A stretch of 51,625 nt of DNA. It comes from Desulfobacterales bacterium. Its GTDB lineage: Bacteria > Desulfobacterota > Desulfobacteria > Desulfobacterales > C00003060. Location of the stretch: NCBI GenBank assembly GCA_023129535.1, contig JAGMBW010000040.1, positions 1-51,625 on the forward strand. The letters run 5' to 3'. The stretch's first letter is position 1, and every line of letters starts with the position of its first letter. Both the position numbers and the translations under genes were made by a program. Below the pieces are notes generated by a model. It saw only the letters and a list, made by a program, of their open reading frames with translations, was not told the origin of the DNA and searched no databases. Shown piece after piece: positions 1 to 51,491 of the stretch.

Positions 1-678
1 TGTCCCATGGTCCAGAGCAATTCTTATATGGTCCGTGTGGCCCACGGGATAGACATGTCATGCGTTTTGAGTCCGGTGATTCACCTGAAATACGATCCCG
101 ATACCCTGGCGCTTGAGATTTCAGAGCAAATACAATCGAAACTTGGCGTGGGCAAGGCTGAGATAAAAAAGGCCCTTTATTATGGCCTGGACAGGCAGAA
201 TCGATTTGACAGAGAACTTTACCAGAGAGGGCGAAAGATCCTTGATGATCAGGATCCCGACGAGCCAGTCGTGGTGGTGACAGGCCGGCCGTACAATCTT
301 TATGATGAAAGGTTGAATTTGAGGCTTGGTCAGAATATGGGCAAGATCGGAGTAACCGCGCTCCCCATGGATTTCATTGATGTGTCTTCGGTAGACCTTT
401 CAGATTTTCCGTCCATGTACTGGGGACTTGGCGCTCAAGTCCTGAGGACCGCCAGATTTGTGACGGCCCATCCAAACTATTTTGGTCTCCATTTGACCAA
501 TTTTGGGTGTGGGGCGGACTCTTTTATGGAGCATTTCTACAAGTATGTGATGGGAGACAAGGCATACCTGATCCTGGAGCTTGACGAGCACAGTGGTGTG
601 GCAGGTGTTATGACGAGGCTTGAGGCCTTTAAGAATGTCGTAGAGAATACTATGCAGAAATCATTTTTGGTCGAGTAG
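1..678 (+). CDS. C-terminal part of an acyl-CoA dehydratase activase-related protein (DUF2229-like), 5' truncated by the window edge
   Basis: GRPYN, MYWG, TNFGCGADSF and LELDEHS...TRLEAF motifs typical of CoA-substrate-specific enzyme activase C-terminal domains. Confidence 0.75.
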   Translation, partial: CPMVQSNSYMVRVAHGIDMSCVLSPVIHLKYDPDTLALEISEQIQSKLGVGKAEIKKALYYGLDRQNRFDRELYQRGRKILDDQDPDEPVVVVTGRPYNLYDERLNLRLGQNMGKIGVTALPMDFIDVSSVDLSDFPSMYWGLGAQVLRTARFVTAHPNYFGLHLTNFGCGADSFMEHFYKYVMGDKAYLILELDEHSGVAGVMTRLEAFKNVVENTMQKSFLVE

Positions 679-833
679 TTAAATGGTCGAGTAGTCGAGT
701 CGTAAGGTCCTTTCGACTAGGGTCGAGTAGTTAAATAGTCGAGTAGTCGAGTCGTAAGGTCCTTAAGCCACTCGACTACTCGACCACTCGACCACTCGAC
801 TACTCGACCACTCGACCACTCGACTACTCGACC
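669..833. repeat. Inverted tandem-array element, 8-mer RGTCGAGT (669-753) / ACTCGACY (768-833)
   Basis: Read directly; the left arm contains a 44-bp direct duplication (669-712 vs 721-764) and the upstream TAG lies in the first unit. Confidence 0.95.
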
Positions 834-847
834 AATTGTGGGGCAAA

Positions 848-2200
848 ATGGAATCACAAAGGGCTGCAAATTTTCAATCGCTCACTGAAAATGTGGGCCG
901 GTTCAGTGTTAAGAACAAGACGTTCCTGATTCCTGAAATGGACAGGATAGCTGCGCATCTTATCGCGGCAACATTCAGGGGGTTTGGCATTAATGCAAAG
1001 GTCATGGACACCTATAAGGGCCTTGACCTTGGAAAGGAATACACTTCCGGCAAAGAATGTTACCCCTGCCTGATCACTACAGGAGATATCCTCTATTTTC
1101 TGAAGAAAGAACATGAGAAGCTGGGGGAGGCTTTCAATCCGGAAGATTACATCTACTTCATGCCCGAATCGGACGGACCATGCCGTTTCGGCATGTACAA
1201 CAAGTACCAGCGAATTGTCCTCGATTCTTTTGCAGAGTTCAAGGGTATAAAAATCGGTTCCCTTAGCACAAAGGATGGTTACTCACTGGCCGGCATGATT
1301 GAGAGGGGACGGGTCAGGGATCTCAGGAAAGCAAGCTATTTTTCTATGGTGGTGGCCGACATCCTCGACAGGTTGCTCTGGAAAATCAGGCCTTATGAAA
1401 AGGAATCGGGGATGACGGATGATTTTATCGAGAGATCTATGGGCGTCATGGAAGATACCTTTGAGACGTATGGGGCCAAGAAGGATTTTGATAAGATTCT
1501 TGACAAACTGGACGAGATTATTGAAGAGGGAAAAACAATTATTGATTCCAACATTCCTCCCAAACCACTTATTGGGATCGTTGGCGAGATTTACTTGAGG
1601 ACACACGTCCACGCAAATCAGCATTTGATCAGAGTCCTGGAAAGGCATGGGGCTGAGGTGATAAATGCCTCCATGGCGGAATGGATCAACTATACGACCT
1701 ATGACAGGTTGAGAGAGGCTAAAATAGGATTTCGGTTGAATCTGAAACAGCTCCGACTGGGTCCGATGAAGGAGTATTTGGGAAAAATTCTCGGGTATTG
1801 GGGGGACCTTTTGTATCAGGAATTCAGACAGAAGCAGGCCTACAAGCGGGCGAGATCGCTCATTGACCTGGCCGAAGACCACAAAATAGCACATCTGGAA
1901 GGTATCCTTAAGGAAGATGACCTGTTTACTTTTGATGTGGGCACAGAGGCGTGTTTGAGCATTGCTGGAATCATAGAATATGCCCGTGGCGGATATAACG
2001 GCGTCGTGAATGTTTACCCTTTCACCTGTATGCCCAGCACGACTACTTCAGCCATCGTAATGCCTCTCATGAACAAACTCGGAGTTCCGTATCTGGATAC
2101 TCCCTACGACTCGGGCATCCAGCCCGGAAGGGAGGCGGCCATCAGGACCTTCATGTACCAGGCGTATCAGCACTTCAAACGGCATCCGAGAAAAACCTAA
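848..2200 (+). CDS. CoA activase / 2-hydroxyacyl-CoA dehydratase-related protein
   Basis: SGKECYPC, GPCRFGMY, IGIVGEIY and PFTCMP motifs; start moved from the TTG at 836 to the ATG at 848. Confidence 0.75.
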   Translation: MESQRAANFQSLTENVGRFSVKNKTFLIPEMDRIAAHLIAATFRGFGINAKVMDTYKGLDLGKEYTSGKECYPCLITTGDILYFLKKEHEKLGEAFNPEDYIYFMPESDGPCRFGMYNKYQRIVLDSFAEFKGIKIGSLSTKDGYSLAGMIERGRVRDLRKASYFSMVVADILDRLLWKIRPYEKESGMTDDFIERSMGVMEDTFETYGAKKDFDKILDKLDEIIEEGKTIIDSNIPPKPLIGIVGEIYLRTHVHANQHLIRVLERHGAEVINASMAEWINYTTYDRLREAKIGFRLNLKQLRLGPMKEYLGKILGYWGDLLYQEFRQKQAYKRARSLIDLAEDHKIAHLEGILKEDDLFTFDVGTEACLSIAGIIEYARGGYNGVVNVYPFTCMPSTTTSAIVMPLMNKLGVPYLDTPYDSGIQPGREAAIRTFMYQAYQHFKRHPRKT

Positions 2201-2211
2201 GTTAAGTGGTT

Positions 2212-2230
2212 CAATCGTAAATCGACAATC
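2212..2230. repeat. Short orphan right arm, 7-mer AATCGNN
   Basis: caatcgtaaatcgacaatc immediately before the pilC RBS; same family as 18584-18618 and 49840-49877. Confidence 0.6.
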
Positions 2231-2245
2231 AAAAGAGGGTGAACT

Positions 2246-3457
2246 ATGGCTGTCTATCTGTGGAAAGGAGAAGACAGGAAGGGGGCTGTCCAGAAGGGTG
2301 AAATAGAGGCCCCTGATGAGAGTAGCGTGCGTGCACAGTTACGTCGCATGCACATAAGAGCTACGAAGATAAAGAAAAAACCGAAGGATCTTTTTGGAAA
2401 CGTCTCCTTCATGCAGCCCAAGGTGACAACGGTCGATGTGGTGGTGTTTGCAAGGCAATTTGCAACCATGATCAATGCCGGACTCCCGCTGATTCAGAGC
2501 CTCGACATTCTCCAGTCCCAGCAAGAGAACAAGACCTTCAAGAAGGTTTTGAAGGAGATCAAGGAGAGTGTGGAAGAGGGCTCAACCCTTGCAGAGGCTA
2601 TAGGAAAATACCCGAAGATATTTGATGACCTTTTTATTAACATGGTTGCGGCAGGAGAGGTAGGCGGTATCTTAGATACCATTTTGAACCGTCTTTCGGC
2701 TTACATGGAAAAGGCTATGAAGCTCAAGAAACAGGTCAAGGGAGCCATGACCTACCCTATAATCGTCCTGGTTATTGCCTTTATAGTCATCGCTGTGATC
2801 TTAGTCTTTGTAATTCCGGTTTTTGAGAAGATGTTTGCTGATTTTGGGGGGGCCCTTCCAGCCCCCACCCAGATTGTGGTGAACCTGAGCAGGTTTGCCA
2901 AAGGGAATATCCATTACATGATCGGCGCGGTCATTGTCTTTGTTTTTGCATTCAAGAGATTTTATGGCACTGAAAAGGGGCGTGTCATTATGGACGACGT
3001 GATGCTCAAGCTGCCTGTCTTCGGCCCTCTATTGCGCAAGGTCGCTGTGGCCAAATTTACGCGGACCATGGGCACCATGCTCAGCAGCGGAGTGCCCATC
3101 CTGGAGGCGCTGGACATTGTGGCAAAGACGGCAGGAAATAAGACCGTTGAGGCGGCTATCTACAACGTCCGATCCGGTATCACCGAGGGACGCACCATGG
3201 CAGATCCTCTGGGTGAGAGTGGTGTGTTTCCATCCATGGTGGTTCAGATGGTGGCAGTGGGAGAATCGACAGGGGCCCTGGATTCCATGCTGGGAAAGAT
3301 AGCCGATTTTTACGATGATGAGGTGGATGCAGCAGTTGAGAGTCTGACATCCATGATTGAGCCTTTTATGATGGTCTTTTTGGGTACGACTATCGGCGGG
3401 CTGGTTGTTTCCATGTATTTGCCCATCTTCAAGATGGCGGGCATGGTTGGTGGATAG
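2246..3457 (+). CDS. pilC: Type IV pilus platform protein PilC (GspF family)
   Basis: FARQFATMINAGLPL, AGEVGG, AMTYP, GESTG and IEP motifs. Confidence 0.93.
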   Translation: MAVYLWKGEDRKGAVQKGEIEAPDESSVRAQLRRMHIRATKIKKKPKDLFGNVSFMQPKVTTVDVVVFARQFATMINAGLPLIQSLDILQSQQENKTFKKVLKEIKESVEEGSTLAEAIGKYPKIFDDLFINMVAAGEVGGILDTILNRLSAYMEKAMKLKKQVKGAMTYPIIVLVIAFIVIAVILVFVIPVFEKMFADFGGALPAPTQIVVNLSRFAKGNIHYMIGAVIVFVFAFKRFYGTEKGRVIMDDVMLKLPVFGPLLRKVAVAKFTRTMGTMLSSGVPILEALDIVAKTAGNKTVEAAIYNVRSGITEGRTMADPLGESGVFPSMVVQMVAVGESTGALDSMLGKIADFYDDEVDAAVESLTSMIEPFMMVFLGTTIGGLVVSMYLPIFKMAGMVGG

Positions 3458-3462
3458 GGCGA

Positions 3463-5136
3463 GTGTATAAAGCAGAAATTTCAGACAAATACTCGCCTGG
3501 AAGAGTCCAGTGGCTGATGTTTTTGCGACTGGTATTTGTCACCGTTCTTCTCGGTTCAAGCATCCTGGTCCAATTCAAGGAACGTGAATCCCTCATTGCC
3601 CCCCCTCTCTTAGTGCTCTATGGCCTGATTGCAAGTGTCTACATCATCACCTTTATCTACATTGTGGTCTTCAAGCTCCTCGGGTCCAGTCTCAGGTTTT
3701 CCTATATCCAAATCGGGCTGGACACCCTGTTTGTCACTCTTCTGATCTATGTGACCGGGAGCATTGCCAGTGTGTTTTCCTTCCTTTACTTAGTGGTTAT
3801 TGTTTACGCCAGTATTTTTCTTTACAAACGGGGGAGCCTGATTATGGCGACCCTTTGCAGCATACAGTACGGAGTCATGATAGATCTGGAATATTATGGC
3901 ATTTTGGAGCCGTTCTATACCTCGGCCAGCACAAGTATACAGGCATACGAGGAACCCTATGTGCTTTTTAAGATCATGATGACGATGGTGGCATGCTTCC
4001 TGGTCGCTTTTTTGAGCAGCTCTCTTGCGCAACAGACGCTCAGGACGGAGAAAGAGCTGAAGGCGAAACAAAAAGATCTGGAACAGTTGGAGGCCATAAA
4101 TGCCAGTATTGTACAGAGCATGGATAGCGGGCTTCTTACATTGAACCCTGCAGGCATCATCAGTACCTTTAACCCAGCCGCTGAGGTGATTACGGGGTTT
4201 GGTCGACAGGACGTGGTGGGAAAGCCCCTGTCAAGCATATTTTCCGATGTGGTTCAGCATATGGCCTCATCGGAGGCTGCCGTGAAAAGGAAACCATACC
4301 GTTATGATGTAGAGTTCAAGAGAAAGGACGGGACGGTGGGTTACCTGGGTTTTTCCACGTCTTCATTGAAGGAGCCTGATGGAAAATCTACAGGTAAGGT
4401 TCTCATTTTTCAAGATTTAACCGCGTTCAAAAACATGGAGGAGCATATCAAGCGGGTGGAGAAGCTGGCCGCGATTGGAGAGATGGCCGCTGGAATTGCC
4501 CATGAGATAAAGAATCCGCTGGCATCCATGAGCGGGTCGATTCAGCTGCTCAGCAAAGGAGTCGACATCACGCCTGTGGCCAGAAAACTCATGGGCATCG
4601 TGCTGAGGGAGGCCGACCGGCTTAACGCCCTGGCTAATGATTTTCTCCTGTTTGCACGTCCCGGTCCTGATAAAGTAGAACCTGTGGATCTGAGTTCAAC
4701 CATTGCCGACACATTGGAGCTTTTTAAGAAAAATAAGATTTGCCAGAACAGGATCACTGTGGACCAGGATCTTGCACCCGACGTGTGGACAGAGATGGAC
4801 CCCAAACATGCACGCCAGGTTCTGTGGAACTTATTTTTGAATGCTGCTCAGGCTATTGATGGAATGGGAACGGTGCAAGCGTCCTCGAGGACAGTTGACA
4901 ATATAGTTCAAGTCACTGTGAAAGACGACGGCTGTGGCATGTCCGAAGAGACGATCAGCAAAATCTTCGATCCCTTTTTTACTACCAAGACCCGTGGAAC
5001 TGGCTTGGGACTTTCTATTGTCCACAGGCTTCTGGAATCCTACAATGGACGACTGGACGTTCAGAGTCGACAGGGCCAGGGGAGCATCTTCACCGTACAC
5101 CTCAAGAGAATAGACCCACCGGGCCTTTTATCTTGA
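3463..5136 (+). CDS. pilS: PilS-like membrane sensor histidine kinase (TM-PAS-HisKA-HATPase)
   Basis: Multiple N-terminal TM helices, AHEIKNPL H-box, NAAQA, DDGCG, FFTTK and GTGLGL boxes; directly follows pilC. Confidence 0.8.
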   Translation: MYKAEISDKYSPGRVQWLMFLRLVFVTVLLGSSILVQFKERESLIAPPLLVLYGLIASVYIITFIYIVVFKLLGSSLRFSYIQIGLDTLFVTLLIYVTGSIASVFSFLYLVVIVYASIFLYKRGSLIMATLCSIQYGVMIDLEYYGILEPFYTSASTSIQAYEEPYVLFKIMMTMVACFLVAFLSSSLAQQTLRTEKELKAKQKDLEQLEAINASIVQSMDSGLLTLNPAGIISTFNPAAEVITGFGRQDVVGKPLSSIFSDVVQHMASSEAAVKRKPYRYDVEFKRKDGTVGYLGFSTSSLKEPDGKSTGKVLIFQDLTAFKNMEEHIKRVEKLAAIGEMAAGIAHEIKNPLASMSGSIQLLSKGVDITPVARKLMGIVLREADRLNALANDFLLFARPGPDKVEPVDLSSTIADTLELFKKNKICQNRITVDQDLAPDVWTEMDPKHARQVLWNLFLNAAQAIDGMGTVQASSRTVDNIVQVTVKDDGCGMSEETISKIFDPFFTTKTRGTGLGLSIVHRLLESYNGRLDVQSRQGQGSIFTVHLKRIDPPGLLS

Positions 5137-5165
5137 CACCTCCAGGCAAATACGTTAGCTCAATC

Positions 5166-5369
5166 GCAAAGCGCAGAGCGCATAGAGCATAGCGCAAAGC
5201 GCATAGAGCAGAGCGCATAGAGCAAAGCGCAAAGCGCAGAGCGCATAGAGCATAGAGCAAAGCGCAGAGCGCATAGAGCGAAGCGAAAGAACAAAGAATT
5301 CCGACGCCATGCGCTATGCGTAAAATAACGAATAACGAATAACGGATAACGAATAACGGATAACGGATA
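5166..5369. repeat. About 17 copies of 7-mer GCANAGM (5166-5284), short reverse arm CGCYATG (5305-5320), then an RATAACG array (5324-5369)
   Basis: Read directly between pilS and lysS. Confidence 0.95.
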
Positions 5370-5376
5370 CAGCATT

Positions 5377-6855
5377 ATGGATGAAACGAGTGAAGTAATC
5401 CGCCAGCGACATGAGAAGGCAAGGGCGCTGGCTGATCAGGATATTGAGCTTTATCCCAACGACTTCAAGGTGTCACACACGGTTGATGGACTAAAAAACT
5501 ACATTCATCACCACGCAGGGGCCGTGGACAGCGGGGCTGTCTTTTCCATGGCAGGCCGCATAACGGGGCTCAGGTGTTTTGGAAAGGCGACCTTCATTCA
5601 TTTCAGAGATTATACAGGACAGTTTCAGGCCTACATAAAACAAGACGGGATTGGCAAGGAGGCATACGCCTTATTCAAACAGTTTGATGTTGGCGACTTT
5701 ATTGGCATTAAAGGGAATGTGTTTCAGACCAGGACCGGTGAATGGACCGTTTTGGCCAAGGAGATTCGACTCCTTTGCAAGGCTATCAGGCCTCTTCCCG
5801 AGAAGTTCCATGGATTGAGGGATCCAGAAAAACGTTACCGTCAAAGATACCTTGATCTCATCATGAACCCGAATGTTCGCGACATCTTTATCAAGAGGGC
5901 TCAGATCATTCAAGCCTTCCGGGATTTTCTCTTGGGGCGAGGCTTCTTGGAGGTGGAGACACCTATGATGCAACCCATACCTGGGGGGGCTGAGGCAACC
6001 CCTTTCAACACCTTCCACGATGCCCTGGGGATGGAGCTTTTTTTACGGATTGCACCGGAGCTTTACCTGAAGCGATTAGTGATAGGGGGATTTGATCGAG
6101 TCTTTGAAATTAATCGCAGTTTTAGAAACGAGGGGATTTCAACTCAACACAATCCCGAGTTTACCATGTTGGAGTTCTATCAAGCTTACGCGACCCATAA
6201 GGACCTCATGGTCCTGACCGAGGAGATGTTTAGGTTCGTGACGCGGCAGGTTTTGGGACGGACGCATTTCACGTATCAGGGGAACACGATTGATATGACC
6301 GGGGCGTGGCGTCGGTTAACGCTGCTAAATGCTTTGAGCGAACTGGGCGGCATTGAAGCTTCCATGTTGGATGATCGACATCGTTTACTCGATTTTGCCA
6401 GATCAGAAGGGATTGAGATTAGAAAAACAAGGCGAGTTGGCAAGATCCTGACGAAACTATTTGATGTGTTGGTAGAACCAAAGCTCATTGAACCAACGTT
6501 TGTTGTGGGCTATCCTGTGGAGATTTCACCCCTTGCCAGGAGGAGCAGTTCAGACTCTAACATGACTGAGCGATTTGAGCTCTTTATTGGAGGGCGGGAG
6601 ATTGCTAACGGGTTTTCGGAACTAAACGATCCGGTTGACCAGAAAAGGCGCTTCCTGGATCAAGTCGCAGACAGAGAGGCTGGTGAGCAAGAAGCTCACT
6701 GTATGGATGAAGATTACGTCATGGCACTGGAATACGGGATGCCTCCGACAGCGGGCGAAGGTGTTGGGATTGACCGATTTGTGATGTTGTTGACCAATGC
6801 GGTCTCTATTCGTGAAGTGATCCTCTTTCCACAGTTGAAGAACATTGGTCATTAG
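5377..6855 (+). CDS. lysS: Lysine--tRNA ligase (class II)
   Basis: RYRQRYLDL, LRIAPELYLKRL, FRNEG, HNPEF and YGMPPTAGEGVGIDR motifs. Confidence 0.97.
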   Translation: MDETSEVIRQRHEKARALADQDIELYPNDFKVSHTVDGLKNYIHHHAGAVDSGAVFSMAGRITGLRCFGKATFIHFRDYTGQFQAYIKQDGIGKEAYALFKQFDVGDFIGIKGNVFQTRTGEWTVLAKEIRLLCKAIRPLPEKFHGLRDPEKRYRQRYLDLIMNPNVRDIFIKRAQIIQAFRDFLLGRGFLEVETPMMQPIPGGAEATPFNTFHDALGMELFLRIAPELYLKRLVIGGFDRVFEINRSFRNEGISTQHNPEFTMLEFYQAYATHKDLMVLTEEMFRFVTRQVLGRTHFTYQGNTIDMTGAWRRLTLLNALSELGGIEASMLDDRHRLLDFARSEGIEIRKTRRVGKILTKLFDVLVEPKLIEPTFVVGYPVEISPLARRSSSDSNMTERFELFIGGREIANGFSELNDPVDQKRRFLDQVADREAGEQEAHCMDEDYVMALEYGMPPTAGEGVGIDRFVMLLTNAVSIREVILFPQLKNIGH

Positions 6856-6997
6856 TCATTGGTGAATACTGGTAATTGGAGTATTGGAGTGATGGAGTAC
6901 TGGAGTGATGGGTTTAGAGGAACAGAAAAAACAATTTTTACCGCTTTTACCAGCCACTACTCCAGTACTCCAGTACTCCAATACTCCATTACTCCAT
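6843..6997. repeat. TTRGTCA stub over the lysS stop, then inverted element TGGAGTNN (6877-6912) / 46-bp core / NNACTCCA (6954-6997)
   Basis: Read directly; the core is homologous to 9051-9096 in inverted orientation. Confidence 0.95.
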
Positions 6998-7072
6998 CTG
7001 AATGGCATGAATCAATCGCCACCGAAAGATCTATAATCTTAATGAATTGTAGAATCTACGAGACATCGAGTT

Positions 7073-8302
7073 ATGTCATTTGAAGTCTTTGTCGGTCTTC
7101 GATATCTTCGGGCCAGACGAAAGCAGGCTTTTATTTCGGTTATCACATTCATTTCCATCGCAGGGGTGATGCTTGGAGTAATGGCTATGATGGTAGTACT
7201 GGCGGTGATGACCGGGTTCGGAGCCGACATCAAGTCCAAGATACTGGGTGCAAATGCCCATATTAGGGTCATGAGCCTCACTGGCAAGTTAGACAAACAT
7301 GATGAGGTCATGACAAGGATTGAGGCCGTGGAGGGTGTGGAAGCCACAGCGCCTTTTATCTACAGCCAGGTCATGCTGCGTTGTGGTTCCCGTGTTTCCG
7401 GGGCAATCTTGAGAGGGATTGATCCTTCGCGGGCCGGACGGGTCGTAGAGCTGGAAAAGAGTGTGAAGGACACAGACTTGCGGGCTTTGGGGGGCCCGGA
7501 TGTGCCACCCGGTATCATTCTGGGAAAGGAGCTTTCCCGGTTATTGATGGCCTTCACAGGAGACGAAGTCTACGTGGTGTCCCCCGTCGGTGGTAGCCTG
7601 ACACCCATGGGAGCACGCATACCCTATATGAAGAAGTTCAGGGTTGTGGGCCTTTTTGATTCAGGCATGTACGACTATGACACATCTTTTGCTTACGTTT
7701 CCATTGAGTCGGCCCGGCAGATTCTAAGACTCGGGCAGTCGGTTCATGGCATAGAGGTTAAGGTGGATGACATTTATAGTGTTACTAAGATCTCAAGGTC
7801 TGTACTCGATCGTCTCGGTACTGGTTATTGGACACAGGACTGGATGGAGATGAACAAGAATTTTTTCTCGGCCTTGAAACTGGAAAAGATCGTGATGTTT
7901 ATCATCCTGGTCTTGATTATTCTGGTAGCCGCCTTCAATATCATTAGTACCTTGATCATGATGGTCATGGAGAAAACCAAAGATATTGCTATCCTAAAAT
8001 CTATGGGTGCCACGAGTAAAAGCGTCATGAAGATTTTTATGCTGGACGGTCTTGTCATAGGCGTTGTAGGCACCATCTTCGGAATCATGGGAGGGAGCGT
8101 GCTTTGTTTCTTGTTGAAGCGTTACGAATTCGTGAAGCTTCCGAGCGATGTTTACTATATTTCTACGCTTCCGGTGAGGGTGCAGGTTTTCGACGTGGCC
8201 CTGATAGCCCTGTCTGCTATAGCTATCAGCTTTTTGGCTACACTCTATCCTTCCTATCAGGCCTCCAGATTGGACCCTGCGGCAGCCATCAGATATGAAT
8301 AG
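7073..8302 (+). CDS. lolE: Lipoprotein-releasing ABC transporter permease LolC/E
   Basis: RYLRARRK N-terminus, VMTGF, AAFNIISTL, IAILKSMGA and LYPS...LDP motifs. Confidence 0.92.
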   Translation: MSFEVFVGLRYLRARRKQAFISVITFISIAGVMLGVMAMMVVLAVMTGFGADIKSKILGANAHIRVMSLTGKLDKHDEVMTRIEAVEGVEATAPFIYSQVMLRCGSRVSGAILRGIDPSRAGRVVELEKSVKDTDLRALGGPDVPPGIILGKELSRLLMAFTGDEVYVVSPVGGSLTPMGARIPYMKKFRVVGLFDSGMYDYDTSFAYVSIESARQILRLGQSVHGIEVKVDDIYSVTKISRSVLDRLGTGYWTQDWMEMNKNFFSALKLEKIVMFIILVLIILVAAFNIISTLIMMVMEKTKDIAILKSMGATSKSVMKIFMLDGLVIGVVGTIFGIMGGSVLCFLLKRYEFVKLPSDVYYISTLPVRVQVFDVALIALSAIAISFLATLYPSYQASRLDPAAAIRYE

Positions 8303-8984
8303 CCAGCAGCCATTGATAAGTCTGAGAGATGTCAGGAAATCATTTATTACCAATGGTAATCGCCTGGATGTGCTGCAAGGTGTGGACCTCGACATTTATG
8401 AGGGTGAGATGGTCGCTATTGCGGGGGCTTCCGGTGTGGGCAAGTCAACCCTTCTCCATGTGCTGGGTACTCTGGAACGACCAGACCATGGCGAGGTCCT
8501 TTATCAGGGAGAACGAGTTTTCACTTACGATGAGCAAAGGCTTGCCTCTTTTCGCAATGAGACCATCGGTTTTGTGTTTCAATTTCACCACCTGCTGCCA
8601 GAATTCAACGCCCTGGAAAACACTATGATGCCTGCCTTGATTAAGGGTATGAATCCCAAAGAGGCGTGTGAGCTGGCCGAAGCGATCTTAACCTGGGTGG
8701 GCCTGAAGGATCGCCTGAGACATCATGTGGGGAAACTGTCAGGGGGAGAGCAGCAGAGGGTGGCTGTGGCCAGGTCTCTGGTATTGAAACCATCCATCCT
8801 GTTGGCGGATGAGCCCACTGGTAATCTGGATGTCAGGACTGGTGAGTCGATACATGATCTTTTGGTCTCATTGAACCGTGATGAGGGCATTACAGCGGTA
8901 GTCGTTACCCACAATATGAGGTTAGCTGAGAAGTTATCCCGCAGGGTGACACTGGTAGACGGAAAGGTAGTGGGAGTCGATTAA
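8295..8984 (+). CDS. lolD: Lipoprotein-releasing ABC transporter ATPase LolD
   Basis: GASGVGKS, FVFQFHHLL, LSGGEQQR and DEPTGNLD; overlaps lolE. Confidence 0.93.
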   Translation: MNSQQPLISLRDVRKSFITNGNRLDVLQGVDLDIYEGEMVAIAGASGVGKSTLLHVLGTLERPDHGEVLYQGERVFTYDEQRLASFRNETIGFVFQFHHLLPEFNALENTMMPALIKGMNPKEACELAEAILTWVGLKDRLRHHVGKLSGGEQQRVAVARSLVLKPSILLADEPTGNLDVRTGESIHDLLVSLNRDEGITAVVVTHNMRLAEKLSRRVTLVDGKVVGVD

Positions 8985-8985
8985 A

Positions 8986-9130
8986 TGGAGTGTTGGAGTA
9001 CTGGAGTGTTGGAGTACTGGAGTGTTGGAGTACTGGAGTGTTGGAGTACTGGATGGTAAAAGCGGGGAAAATTATTCTTGTTATTGCTCTAAACCCATTA
9101 CTCCATTACTTCATTACTCCATTACTCCAA
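8986..9130. repeat. Inverted element (TGGAGTGT TGGAGTAC)x4 / 46-bp core / ATTACTCC array
   Basis: Read directly between lolD and bamA. Confidence 0.95.
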
Positions 9131-9156
9131 TCGTGAGCGGAGCGAACAAAGTTCAG

Positions 9157-11808: not shown

Positions 11809-11990
11809 TCATTAGTCATTAGTCATTGGTCATTGGTCATTGGTCATTGGTCAGTGGGGAGTCGGGAGTATGCAGTATGCAGTAACCTTCGATTTCGGAT
11901 TTCGGATTTAAAAGAAGCTGAAATCAATAACCAGTATCAAGTATCCAGCAACCAGCAACAAATGACAAATGACTAATGACAAATGACCAA
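11805..11990. repeat. Composite array: TTRGTCA x7, GGGAGTN/TGCAGTA, TTCGGAT, CCAGYAN, AATGACN
   Basis: Read directly; the outer arms are reverse complements and the bamA TAG is in the first unit. Confidence 0.93.
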
Positions 11991-39989: not shown

Positions 39990-40144
39990 AAAGTGGTCTT
40001 AACCTCTGTATTTGTCTTTCCTCTGGGATAGCAGAAATGGTGAACAGGGCATCCTGTTCGTTCTTCTATCTCGGCCTTTGATAAGGAAAGCTCCTCGCGC
40101 AACTGATGCCCTGGGAGCCTGTCGAGGTTCCCAATTTTCTGAAA
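39986..40144 (-). pseudogene. Polysaccharide deacetylase internal fragment
   Basis: Frame lacking an ATG reads NLDRLPGHQLREELSLSKAEIEERTGCPVHHFCYPRG, resembling the NodB-domain FxYPxG region. Confidence 0.6.
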
Positions 40145-40909: not shown

Positions 40910-40986
40910 GGATACGCTTCGTCGTCACCACCAATAATCGCATTAATGATAAATGAAATGATAAGAATTCCCTTTTGGGTCATATG

Positions 40987-41015
40987 ATTATAGACAAATA
41001 AGGCTTGTGTGTCAA
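40987..41015 (-). promoter_or_regulatory. Sigma70 promoter for the minus-strand LPS cluster
   Basis: Perfect TTGACA-N17-TATAAT on the minus strand. Confidence 0.8.
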
Positions 41016-41047
41016 GCAGGTAATCGCCTGTTGTAAAGCTGTTTCAC

Positions 41048-41076
41048 TTGACACACAAACAACTTTATCCTATAAA
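41048..41076 (+). promoter_or_regulatory. Sigma70 promoter for the divergent membrane protein gene
   Basis: TTGACA-N17-TATAAA. Confidence 0.65.
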
Positions 41077-41143
41077 GCCTTTGCCAAAAAGAAAATTCTT
41101 ATCACTAATAATCAACATAAGCCAATTTCCGAGCAGATTGTCA

Positions 41144-42676
41144 ATGAAAGATTTTATGCAACGCGGTATTTACTTTATTAGTCAGCTTAAAGATGTTCGT
41201 CCCGTTGCGGCGCTATTGGCCGTGGTAACATTGTTCATCGCTGTCAGCATCCGAAATCCCTTGAACAGTGATGGCATACTCTATTTACAAACTGCCGATG
41301 CATTCACCCACTCTGGGTGGCAAGCAGCCATGAAACTCTATTGCTGGCCGTTTTATTCCGTACTGATCGCCTGGTTAGGCAAACTGGCCCATTTATCTTT
41401 CGAGCATAGTGCTTATGTATTGAACGCCGCTCTGTTAGTTGTCATCGTCACAACCTTCATTACTCTGATCAAGGAATTAGGCGGTTCTCGCACCGTGCAA
41501 TTTTTTGGCGCTATCATCATTCTCAGCCACCCACGCCTAAACCACTATCAAAACTACATAATTCGTGATTTTGGCTATTGGGCATTCAGTTTGTTATCGG
41601 TATTATACTTCATCCGCTACTATCGCAATCTACGCTGGCGCTATGCCTTAGGCTGGGGTATATGTATTAGCTTTGCCACATTGTTTCGAATTGAGGGTGC
41701 CGTGCTGTGCTGCTTGAGCCCTCTCGTGTTACTAGTTCGCTCGAACACAGGGCTATGGAGCAGATTAGGATATACACTCAAAGCATATACTGTCAACATC
41801 ATAACTCTAGCTATTCTATTGACTTGGTGGTTCTGTATGCCACATGAGTCAAGCGAGCAACTTGGCCGACTCAGCGAGTTCTGGAATCAGTTGCAAAATG
41901 GCTTAATGTTGTTAAGTAACAATCTGCATAACAAAGCAGCACTCATTAGCCAAACTGTACTTGATGACGCGTCAAAAAAGTGGGGCTTAATCATGACCAT
42001 CTCTGGGCTTGCTGGAATATATCTCTACAGATTGGTTACCACCCTTTGGCCACTCCATATCTTACTTTGTGCCTATGGTGTTTGCAAAAAGCTGATGCCA
42101 ATAGAGGATGGTGCCAAAAAGGTGCTGATGTACTTTACATTATTAAATCTACTGATTCCAGCCATATTCTTAGGGCAACAGTTTTTCATCTCACACCGTT
42201 TTTTGATGCTATCAAGCCTATTACTTCTCCTTTGGTCGCCCTTCAGCTTACACACGATTTATCAGCACTGGCGAGATAAAAAAACAGTGCTAACAGGTAA
42301 CTCTTTATTATTTCCTTTCCTCTCACTTGTGTTTCTAATCATGTTTGTCTATGCCTTTATTCCACCTAAACAATCCAAGATATACGTGGTCTCAGCTGGT
42401 ATATGGCTAAAAGAGAACATGCCTGAGCAGGCAAAACTCTATAGCAATAAGCGGCAAATTGCTTTTTACGCACAACGACAATTTATGTCATGGGATATTT
42501 CTGAAAACCTCAGTATACCGGAGTGGGCATCTGATGATGTTGTTGCTTTAAGAGTGCGTAAAAAGAATTATGAAAAGGTTAGAAAATGCTTAATACCGTT
42601 AAAACTCAAGCCTGTCAAAGTTTTTGCAGATCAAAAAGGTGATAGAGTTATCATTTTTAAAGTTTCTGAAAGCTAA
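41144..42676 (+). CDS. Polytopic membrane protein, GT-C/ArnT-like
   Basis: Many TM helices, NSDGILY, IRDFGYW and RIEG; the ORF-track TTG start coincides with the -35 box, so ATG 41144 is preferred. Confidence 0.6.
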   Translation: MKDFMQRGIYFISQLKDVRPVAALLAVVTLFIAVSIRNPLNSDGILYLQTADAFTHSGWQAAMKLYCWPFYSVLIAWLGKLAHLSFEHSAYVLNAALLVVIVTTFITLIKELGGSRTVQFFGAIIILSHPRLNHYQNYIIRDFGYWAFSLLSVLYFIRYYRNLRWRYALGWGICISFATLFRIEGAVLCCLSPLVLLVRSNTGLWSRLGYTLKAYTVNIITLAILLTWWFCMPHESSEQLGRLSEFWNQLQNGLMLLSNNLHNKAALISQTVLDDASKKWGLIMTISGLAGIYLYRLVTTLWPLHILLCAYGVCKKLMPIEDGAKKVLMYFTLLNLLIPAIFLGQQFFISHRFLMLSSLLLLLWSPFSLHTIYQHWRDKKTVLTGNSLLFPFLSLVFLIMFVYAFIPPKQSKIYVVSAGIWLKENMPEQAKLYSNKRQIAFYAQRQFMSWDISENLSIPEWASDDVVALRVRKKNYEKVRKCLIPLKLKPVKVFADQKGDRVIIFKVSES

Positions 42677-42836
42677 AATCAACCAGGTAAGAAATTCTTT
42701 CGTGGTAGACATTTTTTGAAGACAGCTCTCGTTGAAATATTTTGTTTTATAGAGTGAACATATTACAGATTGGTAGTATAGGAATTCCCTTTTTTTAGCG
42801 GCGTAGCCGCATTATATAAAATCGCTTCGCGATTTT

Positions 42837-43841
42837 ATGACAAAGTTGAGGATATGTATGGCAGGGAAAGGAGAAGAACAGGGACAACAGAGATCGAGGA
42901 AACCACATGGCTTTTTCGGCACATTTACAGCTTTCATTGCAAGTATGCCACAAAAGCATATTGCCGGTGTTGGCAAGTTAGTAGGGACACTTGCATATAT
43001 CCTGGATAGACGTCATCGGCGCATCGTGAAGCGCAACTTGCAATTCACCCATCCTGAATGGTCCCGGGACCGCATCCAGAGACTCTACAAACGTGTTTTC
43101 CAAAACATGGGGGTTACTGTTCTGGAAATCTGTCAGATGATGTGCTTTTCCAGGGAGGATATACTGCGCAAAGTCCGAATCAGGGGAAAAGAGAATCTGC
43201 TTAATGCTATGAAAAGTCCAAAAGGCATTATCATGATTTCAGCTCACCTGGGGAACTGGGAAATGGCTCACCTATTTATTTCTTGCTATCTCCAGAAGCC
43301 CTTATTATTGGTGGTTAGACAGATTCAGCCCAAGGTTCTTAATCGGTGGATTCACAGACTTCGGAGTAATTTTGGGAATATTCTCGTATATAAGAAACGG
43401 GCATTACCCAAAATGGCTCGGACGCTACTCCAGGGGAAAACGCTGGGATTATTGATCGACCAGGGAACCAAACTCTCACGAGGAGTTGAGGTTACTTTTT
43501 TCGGCCGTGCCGCTAATACGACTCCCGCCGCTGCTTTACTGGCAAGACGATACGACAGCCCAGTCCTGCCAGTTTTCTGTATCAGGGAAGCAGACGCCGG
43601 GCTTACCCTGATTGTAGAACCACCTCTTACCCTGAAGAGAACAGACGACCTGGGTGCTGACTTGAAAGTAAATACACAGATTATGACTTCGGCTGTCGAA
43701 AAAGCAGTGAGGGCATATCCAGAGCAGTGGTTTTGGTTTCACAAACGCTGGAAACGGCACTATCCATATCTGTACCCCGAAGATCTGGCCAGGCGACAAC
43801 GTCGCAGAGAAAAAAAGAGAGCGCGATTGAGAAAGGTGTAA
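42837..43841 (+). CDS. lpxL: Lipid A late acyltransferase (LpxL/HtrB family)
   Basis: SAHLGNWE, LIDQG, FFG and PEQWFWFHKRWK. Confidence 0.85.
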   Translation: MTKLRICMAGKGEEQGQQRSRKPHGFFGTFTAFIASMPQKHIAGVGKLVGTLAYILDRRHRRIVKRNLQFTHPEWSRDRIQRLYKRVFQNMGVTVLEICQMMCFSREDILRKVRIRGKENLLNAMKSPKGIIMISAHLGNWEMAHLFISCYLQKPLLLVVRQIQPKVLNRWIHRLRSNFGNILVYKKRALPKMARTLLQGKTLGLLIDQGTKLSRGVEVTFFGRAANTTPAAALLARRYDSPVLPVFCIREADAGLTLIVEPPLTLKRTDDLGADLKVNTQIMTSAVEKAVRAYPEQWFWFHKRWKRHYPYLYPEDLARRQRRREKKRARLRKV

Positions 43842-43859: not shown

Positions 43860-43891
43860 ATTTCGGATTTTGGATTGCGGATTGCGGATTT
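43860..43891. repeat. Orphan left arm ATTKYGG 7-mer
   Basis: atttcggattttggattgcggattgcggattt. Confidence 0.8.
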
Positions 43892-45125: not shown

Positions 45126-45250
45126 TTCATTAGATCAACAAGCAAGCGTCGAGTCTTTATGAAAATCCTTATTCCCTGATAAAAAGCCGGGCAGGTAGAG
45201 GCCGCACAATGAATAGCATATTGAAAGCAGCGTCGCGCCCGTGGCCCAGA

Positions 45251-45393
45251 CCCTGGCCCAGACCCGGATCATAGGCTTGGCAGATTAATTCAAGCACGTC
45301 GCGCCAGGGCGGGCTCCAGGCGATGAGATTGCCACGTCGCTTCGCTCCTCGCAATGACAGCAAACGAACTACCCGGACTTATTGGGAACTTAC
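45251..45393. mobile_element. Left-truncated copy of the 48456-48665 MITE
   Basis: Near-identical to 48510-48626 and ends in a matching terminal repeat (ccggacttattgggaacttac). Confidence 0.8.
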
Positions 45394-45809
45394 TCTTCAA
45401 CCGGGAACCGTGAACGTTGAACCGCTCAATCTAGGTTATAAGACGGCATCACTTCAAGGGCCTGTTCATTCACTGCATCTACGATCCCCTGGAGCCATTT
45501 GGTTCCCATAGCTGACCAGATCTTGTCCAATCCCTGGATGACTGCCACATAGCCAGTCCCTTTTTCCTTAATATGTTTGTTGAGCCGCTCCAAAAAAGGT
45601 TCCCGGACAGAGGGATCACCCGGGTTCTCCAGGCTGCTTGACAAAACGGCCTCCACGTCCTGCCACCTGTCAAACAATTCCTGCTTTTGCCTCAGGAGTT
45701 TCTCGTTTGCTTGCTCCTTCACGATCGCTCGGTATCTCCTGGCCGATTCAGGCATCTTCTGGGCCAGTGCCTTAAAGCGCTCGATGCGTTCCCTAATGGC
45801 CATGTCTAG

Positions 45810-46792: not shown

Positions 46793-47100
46793 TCGAGCTG
46801 TGCGATTAGGACTATTCAAATCAATCACGAAAACACGAAAGTACGTAATGTTCTCAAGGCAAACGCCGCAAAACACGAAATGAACCATACCAAAAAGATA
46901 TTCGGAATTCTGTTTGTCAAACAAGTACTGATTTATCAGCAGCTTAGCATCCTGAGAGATGAGCATAAGAATGAACCTGCAAGAATCTAACAATCAAGCA
47001 AGTCTTTAGGGCCTTTTTCGTGCTTTCGTCTTTTCGTGCTTTCGTGATAGTTCTTTTGAGCGCTTTTGCTTAGAATTCAATATGTAACCGTACAGATCGA
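46793..47100. mobile_element. 308-bp element with imperfect 17-bp terminal IRs and internal CACGAAA / TTTCGTG arrays
   Basis: Ends tcgagctgtgcgattag / gtaaccgtacagatcga, flanked by AAGTTT on both sides. Confidence 0.8.
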
Positions 47101-47106
47101 AAGTTT

Positions 47107-47293
47107 TGGAGCTGTGCAGTTACGAAACTAGTCAAAATTAATCACGAAAACACGAAAGTACGAAAACACGAAATAAGACCCGGAAACTAAGTTGCTAACG
47201 TTCTTTTTCGTGCTTTCAATCTTTCGTGCTTTCGTGATAGTTCTTTTTTTTGCTTCTCTGAGACTAAATCCAATATCTAACCGCACAGGTCGA
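47107..47293. mobile_element. 187-bp second tandem copy of the same element
   Basis: Ends tggagctgtgcagttac / ctaaccgcacaggtcga, flanked by AAGTTT on both sides. Confidence 0.8.
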
Positions 47294-48414: not shown

Positions 48415-48421
48415 TGGACAT

Positions 48422-48757
48422 AACATTTATCATTTAACATTTATCATCGATCATTGTAAGTTCTCAAAAGGCTCGGTTTTTTTCGTCATTGCGAGCAGAG
48501 CGAAGCAATCCCTGGCCCAGACCGGGCTTCATAGGTTTGGCAGATTAATTCAAGCACATCGCGCCAGGGCGGGCTCCAGACCATAAGATTGCCACGTCGC
48601 TTCGCTCCTCGCAATGACAGCAAACGCCAGTGTCAAGGAATTACCCGAACTTTTTGAGAAGTTACCGATCATTCCCCATTGAGTATATACGACGGGAAAT
48701 TTACCAGTACCCAATGACAAATGACAAATGACAAATGATAAATGATAAATGATAAAT
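48422..48757. repeat. Inverted CATTTAW (48422-48455) / AAATGAY (48711-48757) element interrupted by a MITE
   Basis: Read directly; the xerD ATG is in the last unit. Confidence 0.9.
48456..48665. mobile_element. 210-bp MITE with 21-bp TIRs and an 8-bp target duplication CGATCATT
   Basis: gtaagttctcaaaaggctcgg / ccgaactttttgagaagttac (18/21); CGATCATT at 48448-48455 and 48666-48673. Confidence 0.9.
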
Positions 48758-49648
48758 TCCCTGGATCAGCTGGCAGACCAGTTCATCAACTACCTGGTGG
48801 TGGAAAAAGGGCTTTCAAGAAATACCGTTGTTGCTTACAGCAGAGACTTGATCTTGTATCTGGATTTGTTGAGGGCACATGGTATTTCCAATATCGTCCA
48901 TGCTGACACCACCCTTGTTCTGAAGCACCTGATTGACTTAAGAGATGCAGGGCTTGGGCCCAGGAGCAGAGCCAGGCATCTGGTGACGCTGAGGGGGTTC
49001 TATCGTTTCTTGCTTCAGGAAAAGGTGCTTGAGACCAATCCGGCTCGGGTGGTGGACATTCCAAAGTCCGGACGAAGACTACCTGCTGTTCTAAAGGTGG
49101 AAGAAGTGGTAAGGCTTCTCGAGGGACCTGATACTTCGAAACCTCTGGGGGTGCGAGATGCAGCCATGCTGGAACTTTTGTATGCAGCGGGTCTTCGGGT
49201 CTCAGAGCTTATCAAAGTGGGAATGGCAGACATCAATCTGGAGGCCTGTTTTGTCCTTGTTCTCGGCAAGGGGTCTAAGGAGCGAGTGGTGCCCATTGGC
49301 CAGATTGCTAAGGAAAAGGTCAATGTGTACCTTGCATCAGGACGTCCGGTTCTATTGAAGGCTCGGCCGAGCCGGTATCTCTTTGTAACGCGTTCGGCGA
49401 CCCCCATGACACGCCAGGGATTCTGGAAACTGCTGAAGAAATATGCCCTAATGGTGGGGATTTCCTGCAAAATTGCCCCACACACCCTTCGACATTCCTT
49501 TGCTACTCACCTTTTGGAACGGGGAGCAGATCTCCGCTCAGTACAAGTGATGTTGGGCCATGTGGATATTAGCACCACCCAAATTTATACCCATGTTGCC
49601 CAGGAGAAACTGAAAGCGGTTCACACCCAGTATCATCCCAGGGGATAG
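48749..49648 (+). CDS. xerD: Tyrosine recombinase XerD
   Basis: VEKGLSRNT, GLRVSEL, GKGSKERVVP, TRQGFW, HTLRHSFATHLL, LGH, TQIYTHV and HPRG. Confidence 0.93.
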   Translation: MINSLDQLADQFINYLVVEKGLSRNTVVAYSRDLILYLDLLRAHGISNIVHADTTLVLKHLIDLRDAGLGPRSRARHLVTLRGFYRFLLQEKVLETNPARVVDIPKSGRRLPAVLKVEEVVRLLEGPDTSKPLGVRDAAMLELLYAAGLRVSELIKVGMADINLEACFVLVLGKGSKERVVPIGQIAKEKVNVYLASGRPVLLKARPSRYLFVTRSATPMTRQGFWKLLKKYALMVGISCKIAPHTLRHSFATHLLERGADLRSVQVMLGHVDISTTQIYTHVAQEKLKAVHTQYHPRG

Positions 49649-49655: not shown

Positions 49656-49877
49656 GATTGACGATTGACGATTGAAAATTGACAATTGAAAACCTTTTTC
49701 AGGTTTCAGGGGAATGTTCATAGCTCATAGCTCATAGCTCATAGATTTCAGCTATTAACTATTAGCTATCAGCTATCAGCTTAAGATTTGACACCCGAAT
49801 CAATTGAATATTGACGATTGAATATTGACGATTGTTTTTTTCAATCTTCATTTTTCAATCTTCAATCGACAATCAAT
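49656..49877. repeat. Nested arrays: ATTGANN, TTTCAGG, CTCATAG / AGCTATY pair, second ATTGANN, NNTCAAT
   Basis: Read directly between xerD and purA. Confidence 0.93.
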
Positions 49878-51193: not shown

Positions 51194-51223
51194 CTCAACC
51201 GGCTCAACGGATTCACATGCACC

Positions 51224-51252
51224 TTGACAGCCTAAAGCAACTGGCGTAAAAG
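51224..51252 (+). promoter_or_regulatory. Possible sigma70 promoter for the tRNA
   Basis: TTGACA-N17-TAAAAG; the -10 box is imperfect. Confidence 0.4.
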
Positions 51253-51271
51253 AGTTATGATAGTTTTGGTT

Positions 51272-51303
51272 AAATCCGAAATCCGAATTCTAAAATCCGA
51301 AAT
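51272..51303. repeat. Orphan right arm AAATCCG 7-mer upstream of the tRNA
   Basis: aaatccgaaatccgaattctaaaatccgaaat; reverse complement of the family at 11888-11909 and 43860-43891. Confidence 0.8.
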
Positions 51304-51314
51304 GTCGTTGGTGT

Positions 51315-51391
51315 CGGGACGTGGCTCAGTCTGGTAGAGCACAGCGTTCGGGACGCTGGGGTCGCTGGTTCAAATCCAGTCGTCCCGACCA
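51315..51391 (+). tRNA. tRNA-Pro(CGG)
   Basis: Acceptor stem cgggacg/cgtcccg, anticodon stem cagcg/cgctg with loop ttCGGga, GGTTCAAATCC T-arm and encoded CCA. Confidence 0.96.
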
Positions 51392-51430
51392 CCTTATATA
51401 AAATCGCACTAAGTACAGGGCAAAAAAATT

Positions 51431-51491
51431 AGACAGAATACACAGGATGAACAAGATTATTTTTATTTTAAATTCCTGTTCATCATTAATC
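51431..51491. repeat. Degenerate inverted 9-mer element ACAGGATNN / NTCCTGT
   Basis: agacagaatacacaggatgaacaagatt ... ttcctgttcatc. Confidence 0.55.

Follow-up and report, generated by a model that had tools for sequence, protein, structure and literature searches.

The question raised by this locus is what the facing tandem arrays of 7-10 bp units are that sit in gap after gap of a 51,625-nucleotide stretch of DNA from a Desulfobacterales bacterium (contig JAGMBW010000040.1 of assembly GCA_023129535.1; the whole stretch is called the window hereafter), and how they came to lie there. The genome to which the window belongs as a single contig is 2.90 Mb long, is assembled in 230 contigs and is rated 98.45% complete, and the genes that flank the arrays of the window are ordinary housekeeping genes (pilC, a histidine kinase gene, lysS, lolCE, lolD, bamA and lpxD). 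An original prediction, made from the letters of the window, had described each element as (X)n, a short spacer and (revcomp X)m, with one polarity kept throughout a unit family, and had read the elements as empty or collapsed cassette sites of a mobility system whose enzyme is not encoded in the window. Heptamer arrays of the short tandemly repeated repetitive (STRR) type have served as fingerprinting targets in cyanobacteria for decades; to our knowledge they have no accepted origin or function. We argue that the arrays of the window are rather likely to be, for the most part, the cargo-less arms of small hairpin gene cassettes of this STRR type.

Arrays of this kind occur throughout the genome. 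Tandem Repeats Finder (TRF) returned 2,812 merged arrays, 1,157 of which have period 7, 543 period 8, 457 period 9 and 182 period 10; those of periods 6-10, which represent 814 canonical unit types, make up 2.65% of the genome. When 2,465 arrays of period 6-11 were placed on the open reading frames (ORFs), 1,626 were intergenic, 305 lay in over-extended ORF starts, 161 at ORF 3' ends and 373 inside ORFs, so that 2,092 (85%) are outside ORFs or at their edges in a genome which is 81% coding. About 60% of the gaps longer than 100 bp hold an array, the counts being 236/408 for gaps of 101-200 bp, 239/389 for 201-400 bp and 185/308 for 401-1000 bp. We infer, as had been proposed, that the elements target gene boundaries. 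In 326 arrays the unit has one variable column in 126, two in 98, three in 31 and none in 71, and arrays lying 0.6-3 kb apart belong to the same family in 10.1% of cases as against 5.1% for arrays on different contigs.

The arrays face each other, and they do so with a fixed handedness. Pairing was examined on 1,823 arrays with at least 2.5 copies, a partner being a run of reverse-complement units within 500 bp; 765 of them had such a partner, as against 45 and 42 in controls with the reversed and the complement-only unit, which shows that the layout described for the window indeed holds genome-wide. There are 510 pairs, with spacer quartiles of 14, 37 and 103 nt. Three or more pairs are available for 52 unit families; of the 389 pairs in these, 368 stand in the major orientation of their family, and G exceeds C in the 5' arm of 410 pairs while the opposite is seen in 72 (28 ties). 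Polarity is thus fixed per family, as claimed, and is not random across the genome. Similarly, within gaps G-type arrays come before C-type arrays (333 transitions vs 47 in reverse), and single arrays tend to occupy the matching side of their gap. As X...revcomp(X) reads identically on both strands, this handedness belongs to the element and is not relative to the genes. The 444 pairs of up to 260 nt fold with a mean energy of -47.7 kcal/mol, compared to -25.0 kcal/mol for shuffled sequences (median z -7.3; 95% of them with z < -3).

A link to a cassette comes from a small gene that encodes a four-helix-bundle protein of the family TIGR02436. Of the 19 matches to this family in the genome, 15 are intact genes; the others are two half genes, a single fragment and a copy with a frameshift. 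Each of the 15 intact genes has a tandem array on one side and the reverse complement of that array on the other, scored as inverted 7-mers (1-2/15 in controls), and the frameshifted, half and fragment copies are also found between arms, which gives a decay series; in one relative, a decayed four-helix-bundle gene remains, by eye, between TAGTCGAGT arms. The gene is co-directional with its left neighbour in 13/14 and with its right neighbour in 12/15 cases, mostly 35-190 nt away, and all intact copies have protein-coding or tRNA genes as neighbours, none being in a 23S rRNA helix. One cargo protein matches PF05635, '23S rRNA-intervening sequence protein', at 5.5e-39, and also the bAvd-like PF22296 at 1.9e-7, which is below cutoff; its closest solved homologues, 2gsc and 2rld, have five chains per entry. 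PF05635 is described as resembling Avd, a protein of diversity-generating retroelements, and its name as tied to 23S intervening sequences, in the part of PMC10053308 that deals with it.

Similar results were obtained outside this genome. TIGR02436 is present in 76 of 121 sampled genomes of the class, and inverted arms enclose the gene at 25 of the 29 best class loci (7/29 in controls), the G-rich arm being nearly always on the left. The arms which the original prediction had placed around TIGR02436 genes are therefore present here and in relatives, and cargo-filled versions do exist among the latter. A plasmid search gave the gene in 49 records, 22 of them from Nostoc; arms lie on both sides of it in Stanieria, Anabaena sp. 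90 and Riemerella plasmids, one arm is visible beside it in Nostoc PCC 7120, and in Pseudanabaena the arrangement is more complex. On the plasmids of Anabaena sp. 90 (L200) and Pseudanabaena galeata (L202) gene and arrays sit between cas6 and cas4 of a CRISPR-Cas operon. Two cassettes of the present genome (G000 C179:2933-3253 and C208:5743-6063), which are 94% identical and lie between tRNA genes, have the opposite handedness, with the C-rich arm first, and their TAACCTG/TAACTGG units resemble the TAACTGA repeat of Beggiatoaceae.

Gene and arms appear to travel together. Words of the arms are shared by 16 of 28 protein pairs of at least 60% identity and by 1 of 752 pairs below it, and the observed correlation of protein and arm similarity was reached by 0 of 2,000 permutations; a TTAGC unit core is common to the Pseudanabaena protein and two class proteins which are 54-62% identical to it. 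The outer flanks of related cassettes are unrelated (no tblastx matches). In six related cassettes homology starts at the G-rich array and stops after the C-rich array. In four of the six, a short conserved hairpin follows the C-rich array before homology ends. This hairpin (TTCTCCCAAC ... GGGAGAA), which lies just outside the C-rich arm of the AGGATTC-type cassettes of four genomes (L083, L086, L087 and L092), could be a terminator or a recognition site. Seven dispersed copies of cargo-less composites also have non-array sequence in common, which implies that empty forms, too, disperse or are copied.

Furthermore, the elements come and go at orthologous gaps around which synteny is conserved. 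The gap after ORF 14319-15092 is 7 bp long in four relatives (L001, L006, L008 and L009), 117 bp long with a 9-10 bp unit family in two others (L002, L003), and 196 bp long with other families in the window. In the next gap a CTAAAGTG element is present in the window and in two relatives (L002, L006), and nothing comparable was seen in four others. The cheA-cheR gap holds a filled cassette in this genome; among ten metagenome loci it is short and array-less in five, has arrays without a gene in four and another gene in one. Position is thus not conserved among relatives at these gaps, and the filled, empty and absent states which the original prediction had proposed to look for are all found.

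A second gene may be carried in the same manner. The GxxExxY protein (TIGR04256), which we take to be a PD-(D/E)XK nuclease, is encoded in 54 of the 121 class genomes, and inverted 7-mers were found at 21 of 24 of its loci, where the controls were high as well (11-13/24). Many of these loci have clear CACGGAAA-, CACGAAGG-, CACAGAGA- or CGCAAAGG-type arms. The present genome has two TIGR04256 fragments only, one of them between CACGAAAG arms, so that the arms which the original prediction had placed around GxxExxY genes are seen in relatives and, here, at that one fragment. The CACGAAAN elements of the window belong to the GxxExxY-arm kind of unit.

On this basis a full cassette would comprise an array of 7-10 bp units, usually G-rich, a short promoterless gene and the reverse-complement array, wedged between two genes and mostly pointing their way. 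Its gene would be that of the PF05635/TIGR02436 four-helix-bundle protein or, in relatives, also that of the GxxExxY protein. Every copy in the window and most copies in the genome would be cargo-less, and would consist of one arm alone, of nested pairs or of two arms separated by a short spacer. By means of its complementary arms the insert would fold out, as a long stem, from the transcript or the DNA, by analogy with the PF05635 intervening sequences of 23S rRNA, and operons may tolerate the insert because it is folded out in this way. Each arm would grow and shrink separately by slippage, cargo would often be lost while the arms persist, and cassettes may move by recombination between like arrays or through an enzyme acting in trans. 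A C-rich, G-poor stretch is a loading site for Rho; the order of G-rich arm first and C-rich arm second is perhaps favoured because such a stretch would then never be exposed unpaired.

A number of observations weigh against this reading. For most arrays there is no cargo to which they can be tied: none of the copies in the window bears one, and only about 5 gene remnants were found genome-wide among about 500 pairs. Arrays which share a unit family with a resident cassette amount to 235/1,718 (14%; control 7), and the arms of 53 relatives' cassettes cover 61/1,768 arrays (control 33). The original notion of empty or collapsed cassette sites is accordingly upheld as far as filled copies, polarity and turnover go, and not as far as the collapse of the window's own arrays from cassettes is concerned. 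No mobilising enzyme was found; RVT_1 has no match in the genome, in spite of its 98.45% completeness, and neither an insertion junction nor a target duplication was found among the same-genus genomes, which are 65-79% identical, and the metagenome loci, the best of which has 74% protein identity. Three Y1_Tnp matches exist in the genome; the gene model calls no gene there, and no link between them and the arrays was noted. The arms of Riemerella and Anabaena sp. 90 resemble the arms of dissimilar proteins. Handedness is nearly alike in co-directional (318:51), convergent (35:4) and divergent (31:12) gaps, which led us to reject a tuning to gene context; its near equality in the first two means that it is not visibly tuned to context. 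Selection on a strand-specific RNA was likewise rejected, as sense and antisense folds did not differ in stability (162 vs 176, p = 0.58).

Much of this sits comfortably with arrays that arise in place by slippage and are kept as useful hairpins, for instance for transcript stability, processing or coupling, as proposed for STRR hairpins and for repetitive extragenic palindromic (REP) sequences and bacterial interspersed mosaic elements (BIME), the small genes being passengers that prefer hairpin tips. We regard this as unlikely. The stems are very stable, most pairs have neither cargo nor remnant, 86% of arrays are in families without a resident cassette, pairs are nested or have another element at their centre, and one difference of a 7 nt unit was seen between populations; STRR hairpins between operon genes are on record, in the part of PMC2670836 that concerns them. 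The two arms hardly correlate in length (rho 0.13), and their variant units do not follow a mirrored order (0.050 vs 0.043 shuffled, p = 0.83); such independence of the arms is what slippage would predict, and it led us to reject exact palindromes made by arm-to-arm copying. Slippage alone, however, leaves unexplained why the same unit is inverted on both sides and why 95% of pairs keep the handedness of their family, and it does not account for arms that travel with the gene into unrelated contexts and at which homology stops. The orthologous gaps are often 7-60 bp long and without a hairpin, which argues against a conserved function at the site; pairing was not biased to the sense strand, and the stems lacked a subsequent T-run (27/391 sense vs 36/391 antisense), the latter also being the reason for which intrinsic terminators were rejected. 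When a strict array criterion was applied to one orthologous 20 kb region of the sampled class genomes, 14 arrays were counted here, a number far beyond chance, and arrays were present in 10 of 26 genomes with at least five copies of the four-helix-bundle gene and in 0 of 32 genomes without it; as these genomes are related and the region is a single one, the link between gene and arrays is a lead and not a test.

That unit families follow protein subfamilies could also mean that the arrays are binding sites, with a DNA or RNA core of 5-6 nt per 7-10 nt, for the ring-forming four-helix-bundle proteins and possibly others, in a genome-wide regulatory or packaging network, and not relics of mobile elements, a proposal which we hold to be quite improbable. 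It would suit units made of a fixed core and one or two variable columns, the TTAGC core kept at 54-62% protein identity, the five-chain homologues 2gsc and 2rld and the likeness of the family to Avd, which handles nucleic acid (PF22296 at 1.9e-7, below cutoff; PMC10053308, in the portion on this family). Against it stand 814 unit types for 15-19 such genes, the 14% of arrays that match resident cassette arms, and similar units found with dissimilar proteins; moreover, common descent of gene and arms explains their co-divergence equally well. It is distinctly unlikely that the facing arrays are recognition and homology sites of a transposase-less, homing-type cassette system which takes its specificity from the cargo proteins. 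In such a system ring-forming Avd-like four-helix-bundle and GxxExxY proteins would have as their target the palindromic junction of empty arm pairs, the cassette would be copied in with the arrays serving as homology, and the arrays of Cyanobacteria, Bacteroidota and Desulfobacterota would be the footprints of one system. That the assembly or binning of this metagenome-assembled genome (MAG) produced the arrays as artefacts we consider practically inconceivable: the genome is in 230 contigs and contigs of public runs break at arrays, but the same architecture is present in many independent assemblies, including complete chromosomes and plasmids of cultured Nostoc, Anabaena, Stanieria and Riemerella, and contigs on unique sequence from other studies' runs do run into the arrays, though most end there.

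Two further candidates were rejected. Stop codons are not selected in the 5' arm, which has stops in 1.52 frames as compared to 1.37 in composition-matched controls. A retroelement origin was dismissed because the genome has no RVT_1 match and variation between units is not adenine-biased, the variant rate by consensus base being 0.107 for A, 0.142 for C, 0.095 for G and 0.102 for T.

We then return to the window with the cassette reading, under which its arrays would be mostly arms. TRF on the 51.6 kb gave 87 rows, whose period is in nearly all cases 7-10 or a multiple of such a value; the rows were overlaid on gaps defined by a simple gene model. Between 679 and 30254 an array was detected in 15 of 18 gaps longer than about 20 bp, so that the claim of an element in nearly every gap from 669 to 30051 largely stood. 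The exceptions are 2201-2245, with about three degenerate AATCG-type units by eye, the 32 bp gap 13844-13875, with about two units of the CTAAAGTG complement by eye, and 28587-28833, where a different, palindromic element is found. By TRF, arrays recur at 43860, 45399, 47015-47236, 48421-48757, 49656-49867 and 51272; an array that had also been claimed at 51431 has no TRF row and shows no clear repeat by eye, and none of the ten gaps between 30633 and 42836 has an array. The elements are as follows, with coordinates on the forward strand and as detected by TRF unless stated otherwise.

670-834: two GTCGAGTA-type left blocks (670-700, 722-752) facing a CCACTCGA-type right array (768-834), from TRF and sequence.
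5165-5369: long GCANAGN array (5165-5289), short complementary remnant (about 5309-5320) and orphan AATAACG array (5324-5369) whose end is 7 nt before the lysS start.
6875-6996: TGGAGTNN left and NNACTCCA right array in the lysS-lolCE gap; RNA fold -64.7 kcal/mol, z -10.8.
8986-9129: TGGAGTNN pair (8986-9053, 9095-9129) in the lolD-bamA gap.
11808-11987: composite with outer GTCATTR left and CAAATGA right arrays and AGTATGC and GATTTCG blocks nested inside; begins at the bamA stop codon, and a related unit is in the same gap of two relatives (L009, L003).
12600-12818: degenerate CACGAAAN left units, TTTCGTGC right array (12716-12734) and orphan AACGAAT array (12785-12818) that ends 2 nt before the lpxD start.
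15094-15293: composite of ATTTATC left array, ATACCCG and ATCAGGC blocks and a long ACCAATG/ATAAATG right array which gives the next ORF its ATG.
16097-16380: CTAAAGTG(N)N pair, its inner sequence common to two relatives (L002, L006).
18536-18619: ATTGANN left and TCAATNN right array; fold -19.9 kcal/mol, z -2.1.
19290-19335: short TGGAGTGA pair around a loop of 4 nt; fold -29.0 kcal/mol, z -8.0.
21103-21235: AGCATRG/GCANAGN left array, which reaches into the upstream ORF at its 3' end, and CGCTATG right array.
22459-22481: short right-type TCGACCAC array in a gene junction of 13 bp.
23599-23735: TGGAGT pair (23599-23679), then an orphan right-type ACTTTAGNN array (23693-23735).
26226-26258: orphan right-type ACTCCAGT array.
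27350-27542: CTAAAGTG(N)N pair with a 94 nt spacer.
28613-28800 (approximate): palindromic element with GTCATTGCGAG ... CTCGCAATGAC ends, not a tandem array.
29765-30051: nested composite with outer arms TAGTCGAG left and GACCACTC right; inner blocks of G-type (AATGCGG, AAAGGGC), then of C-type (CGCTATG, AATGACA).
43860-43891: orphan ATTTCGG/GATTGCG array.
45399-45424: orphan AACCGTG array beside a gene end, with a GTCATTGCGAG-type element in the same gap.
46830-47236: two successive CACGAAAN / TTTCGTGN pairs, with spacers of about 230 nt in the first and 33 nt in the second.
48421-48757: ATTTATC left and AATGAYA right array enclosing a palindromic element of GTCATTGCGAG type, just upstream of a XerC/D-type gene.
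49656-49867: composite of GATTGAC, TCATAGC, TCAGCTA and ATTGACG blocks, then TTCAATC.
51272-51303: AAATCCG array ending 11 nt upstream of a tRNA gene (51315-51388).

Two of these sites connect to GxxExxY cassettes: the CACGAAA-type unit of 12600-12818 matches GxxExxY cassette arms of relatives and the remnant at C31:32831-32938, and in the pairs of 46830-47236 31-32% of the 7-mers are present in the library of relatives' GxxExxY arms. The pair at 16097-16380 has, in the window copy, an extra GC-rich insert (ctggcccagacc ... cgccagggcgggc). Arrays also reach into gene starts. The longest ORFs of bamA (9022-9129) and of ORF 18576 (18576-18619) run into arrays, and the start codon at 15289 is supplied by the last unit of an array. 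The BamA match begins at residue 162 of the 9142 ORF, and since the longest bamA ORF starts at 9022, inside the array, the true bamA start is probably downstream; the right arm of 18536-18619 lies within the over-extended start of the next ORF, and alignments of that ORF with its homologues begin at residue 18. In this genome, gene starts that are called automatically have probably often been shifted by arrays.

The palindromic repeat is a separate element, with GTCATTGCGAG ... CTCGCAATGAC ends and often an inner ctggcccagacc ... cgccagggcgggc part. It was noticed at 28613-28800 (approximately), 16270-16350, 45200-45390 and 48470-48650, at the centre of array pairs or alone, and the genome has 157 copies of its 10 nt core. 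It looks like a REP or a miniature inverted-repeat transposable element (MITE). Its place at the centre of pairs fits pairs that are insertion targets as well as pairs that are cassette arms, which is one more point that does not favour the latter.

As regards the genes of the window, the names lysS, lolCE, lolD, bamA and lpxD that had been assigned were borne out by profile matches, and that of skp by a weak match only, far under its cutoff. The original prediction that no mobilising enzyme is encoded in the window agrees with what we found: the only transposase-like gene, in a scan that covered the ORFs other than 13876-28586 and 49892, is the XerC/D-type recombinase gene that had also been named. 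This tyrosine recombinase gene (Phage_integrase with a SAM-like N-terminal domain, 48749-49648) has array-bearing gaps on both sides, and nothing was found that links it to the arrays. A tRNA was the sole match to known RNA families in the window. The array-free stretch 30633-43841 contains small DUF2283/DUF5678 genes and a lipopolysaccharide-core cluster (heptosyltransferases, Kdo-type kinases, glycosyltransferases) with low coding scores; beside it GC content is lower (41.6% at 30001-32300 and 42.8% at 40910-43841 vs 48.7% at 1-30000). This stretch may be a later acquisition which arrays have yet to colonise. The closest relatives are MAGs labelled Desulfobacterales, with at most 84% identity for ORF 14319-15092.

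The public runs in which this stretch is found are cold-seep and marine-sediment metagenomes. Their contigs, which come from other studies, lie on unique sequence, run into arrays and mostly end there. A contig of run X7 is without one 7 nt unit at 21100 and contigs of run X5 are gapped; the copy-number heterogeneity which the original prediction had proposed to look for is seen to this extent, with the run contigs breaking at arrays. The contigs of one RNA run (share 0.04) cover a few coding stretches only. Word depth of some units in public runs is in the thousands, compared to 10-30 on unique sequence. At 15672-16338 and 23676-24342 contigs of three metagenome runs pile on CTAAAGTG arrays with a mean word depth of 1,147-19,898 vs about 10-30, which suggests that the CTAAAGTG unit is very abundant in those communities; units of such depth possibly stem from other organisms too.

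What this genome adds is that it ties such arrays, at very high density, to a concrete unit, a PF05635 or GxxExxY gene enclosed by opposed arrays, that this arrangement has a fixed handedness, and that the same layout is met in three phyla. If the cassette reading is true, it would explain a widespread class of bacterial repeats, provide a setting for tests of the PF05635 and GxxExxY families, which are large and uncharacterised, and alert annotators to genomes of this kind, where arrays often shift ORF starts and gene junctions; it would also offer a natural system in which to study how operons tolerate insertions at tight gene junctions. The link to cargo, the rule of handedness and the cross-phylum layout appear to be undescribed in print. 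Our literature search found no published statement of a fixed handedness or of a cargo gene for such arrays, and the literature on TIGR02436, PF05635 and GxxExxY, supplementary files excluded, yielded nothing on flanking repeats; as the original prediction already named such arms around these genes, database family notes may mention them.

Comparison with known systems places the elements nearest to STRR arrays, with features of several others. Diversity-generating retroelements differ in that no RVT_1 and no adenine-specific variation between repeat copies is seen here. With MITEs such as Correia elements our elements have in common that they are enzyme-less, dispersed between genes and multi-copy in cargo-less form, with terminal inverted arms at which the homology of related cassettes begins and stops; no parent transposon, however, was seen, and no target duplication in the comparison with same-genus genomes of 65-79% identity. 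Integron cassettes likewise consist of a promoterless small gene with a hairpin-forming site, but the cassettes described here are scattered and not stacked beside an integrase, and, unlike in both MITEs and integron cassettes, their ends are tandem arrays of which the two sides vary independently. REP/BIME elements are similar as hundreds of short palindromic stem-formers between genes, often in operons, which make up 1-3% of a genome (2.65% here). A REP, however, is a single imperfect palindrome of 20-40 nt, of few families and mobilised by a Y1 transposase (REP-associated tyrosine transposase, RAYT), whereas the arms here are tandem arrays of 7-10 bp units in hundreds of unit families (814 types); the GTCATTGCGAG element is more REP-like than the arrays are. 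The TAACTGA heptamer repeats of marine Beggiatoaceae are abundant between genes, lie beside gene starts and are common to Beggiatoaceae, Cyanobacteria and Bacteroidetes; in the section of PMC4679880 devoted to them this one unit forms 2-6 direct copies that point to the start codon downstream, and of 170 sets a single one is inverted. Here, in contrast, there are many units, inverted pairs and no orientation relative to genes.

Two systems come closer. The intervening sequences of 23S rRNA have PF05635 cargo, a small ORF and complementary ends that pair into a stem within a transcribed region; such rRNA intervening elements are excised by RNase III. Our elements differ from them in lying between protein-coding or tRNA genes and in having tandem arrays as ends. 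STRR arrays form, when facing, hairpins between operon genes, as with hupS-hupL, and were given no function in the part of PMC2670836 that treats them. They resemble the present arrays in their tandem, mostly 7 bp units, their intergenic position, their many unit types and their facing layout, and cyanobacterial plasmids have the same four-helix-bundle gene between such arrays. The TTGGTCA-type unit found here matches a classical STRR unit. The differences are that the host is a relative of Desulfobacterales MAGs and not a filamentous (heterocystous) cyanobacterium, and that units of 8-10 bp are also common here, in a genome where about 60% of the gaps longer than 100 bp are occupied.

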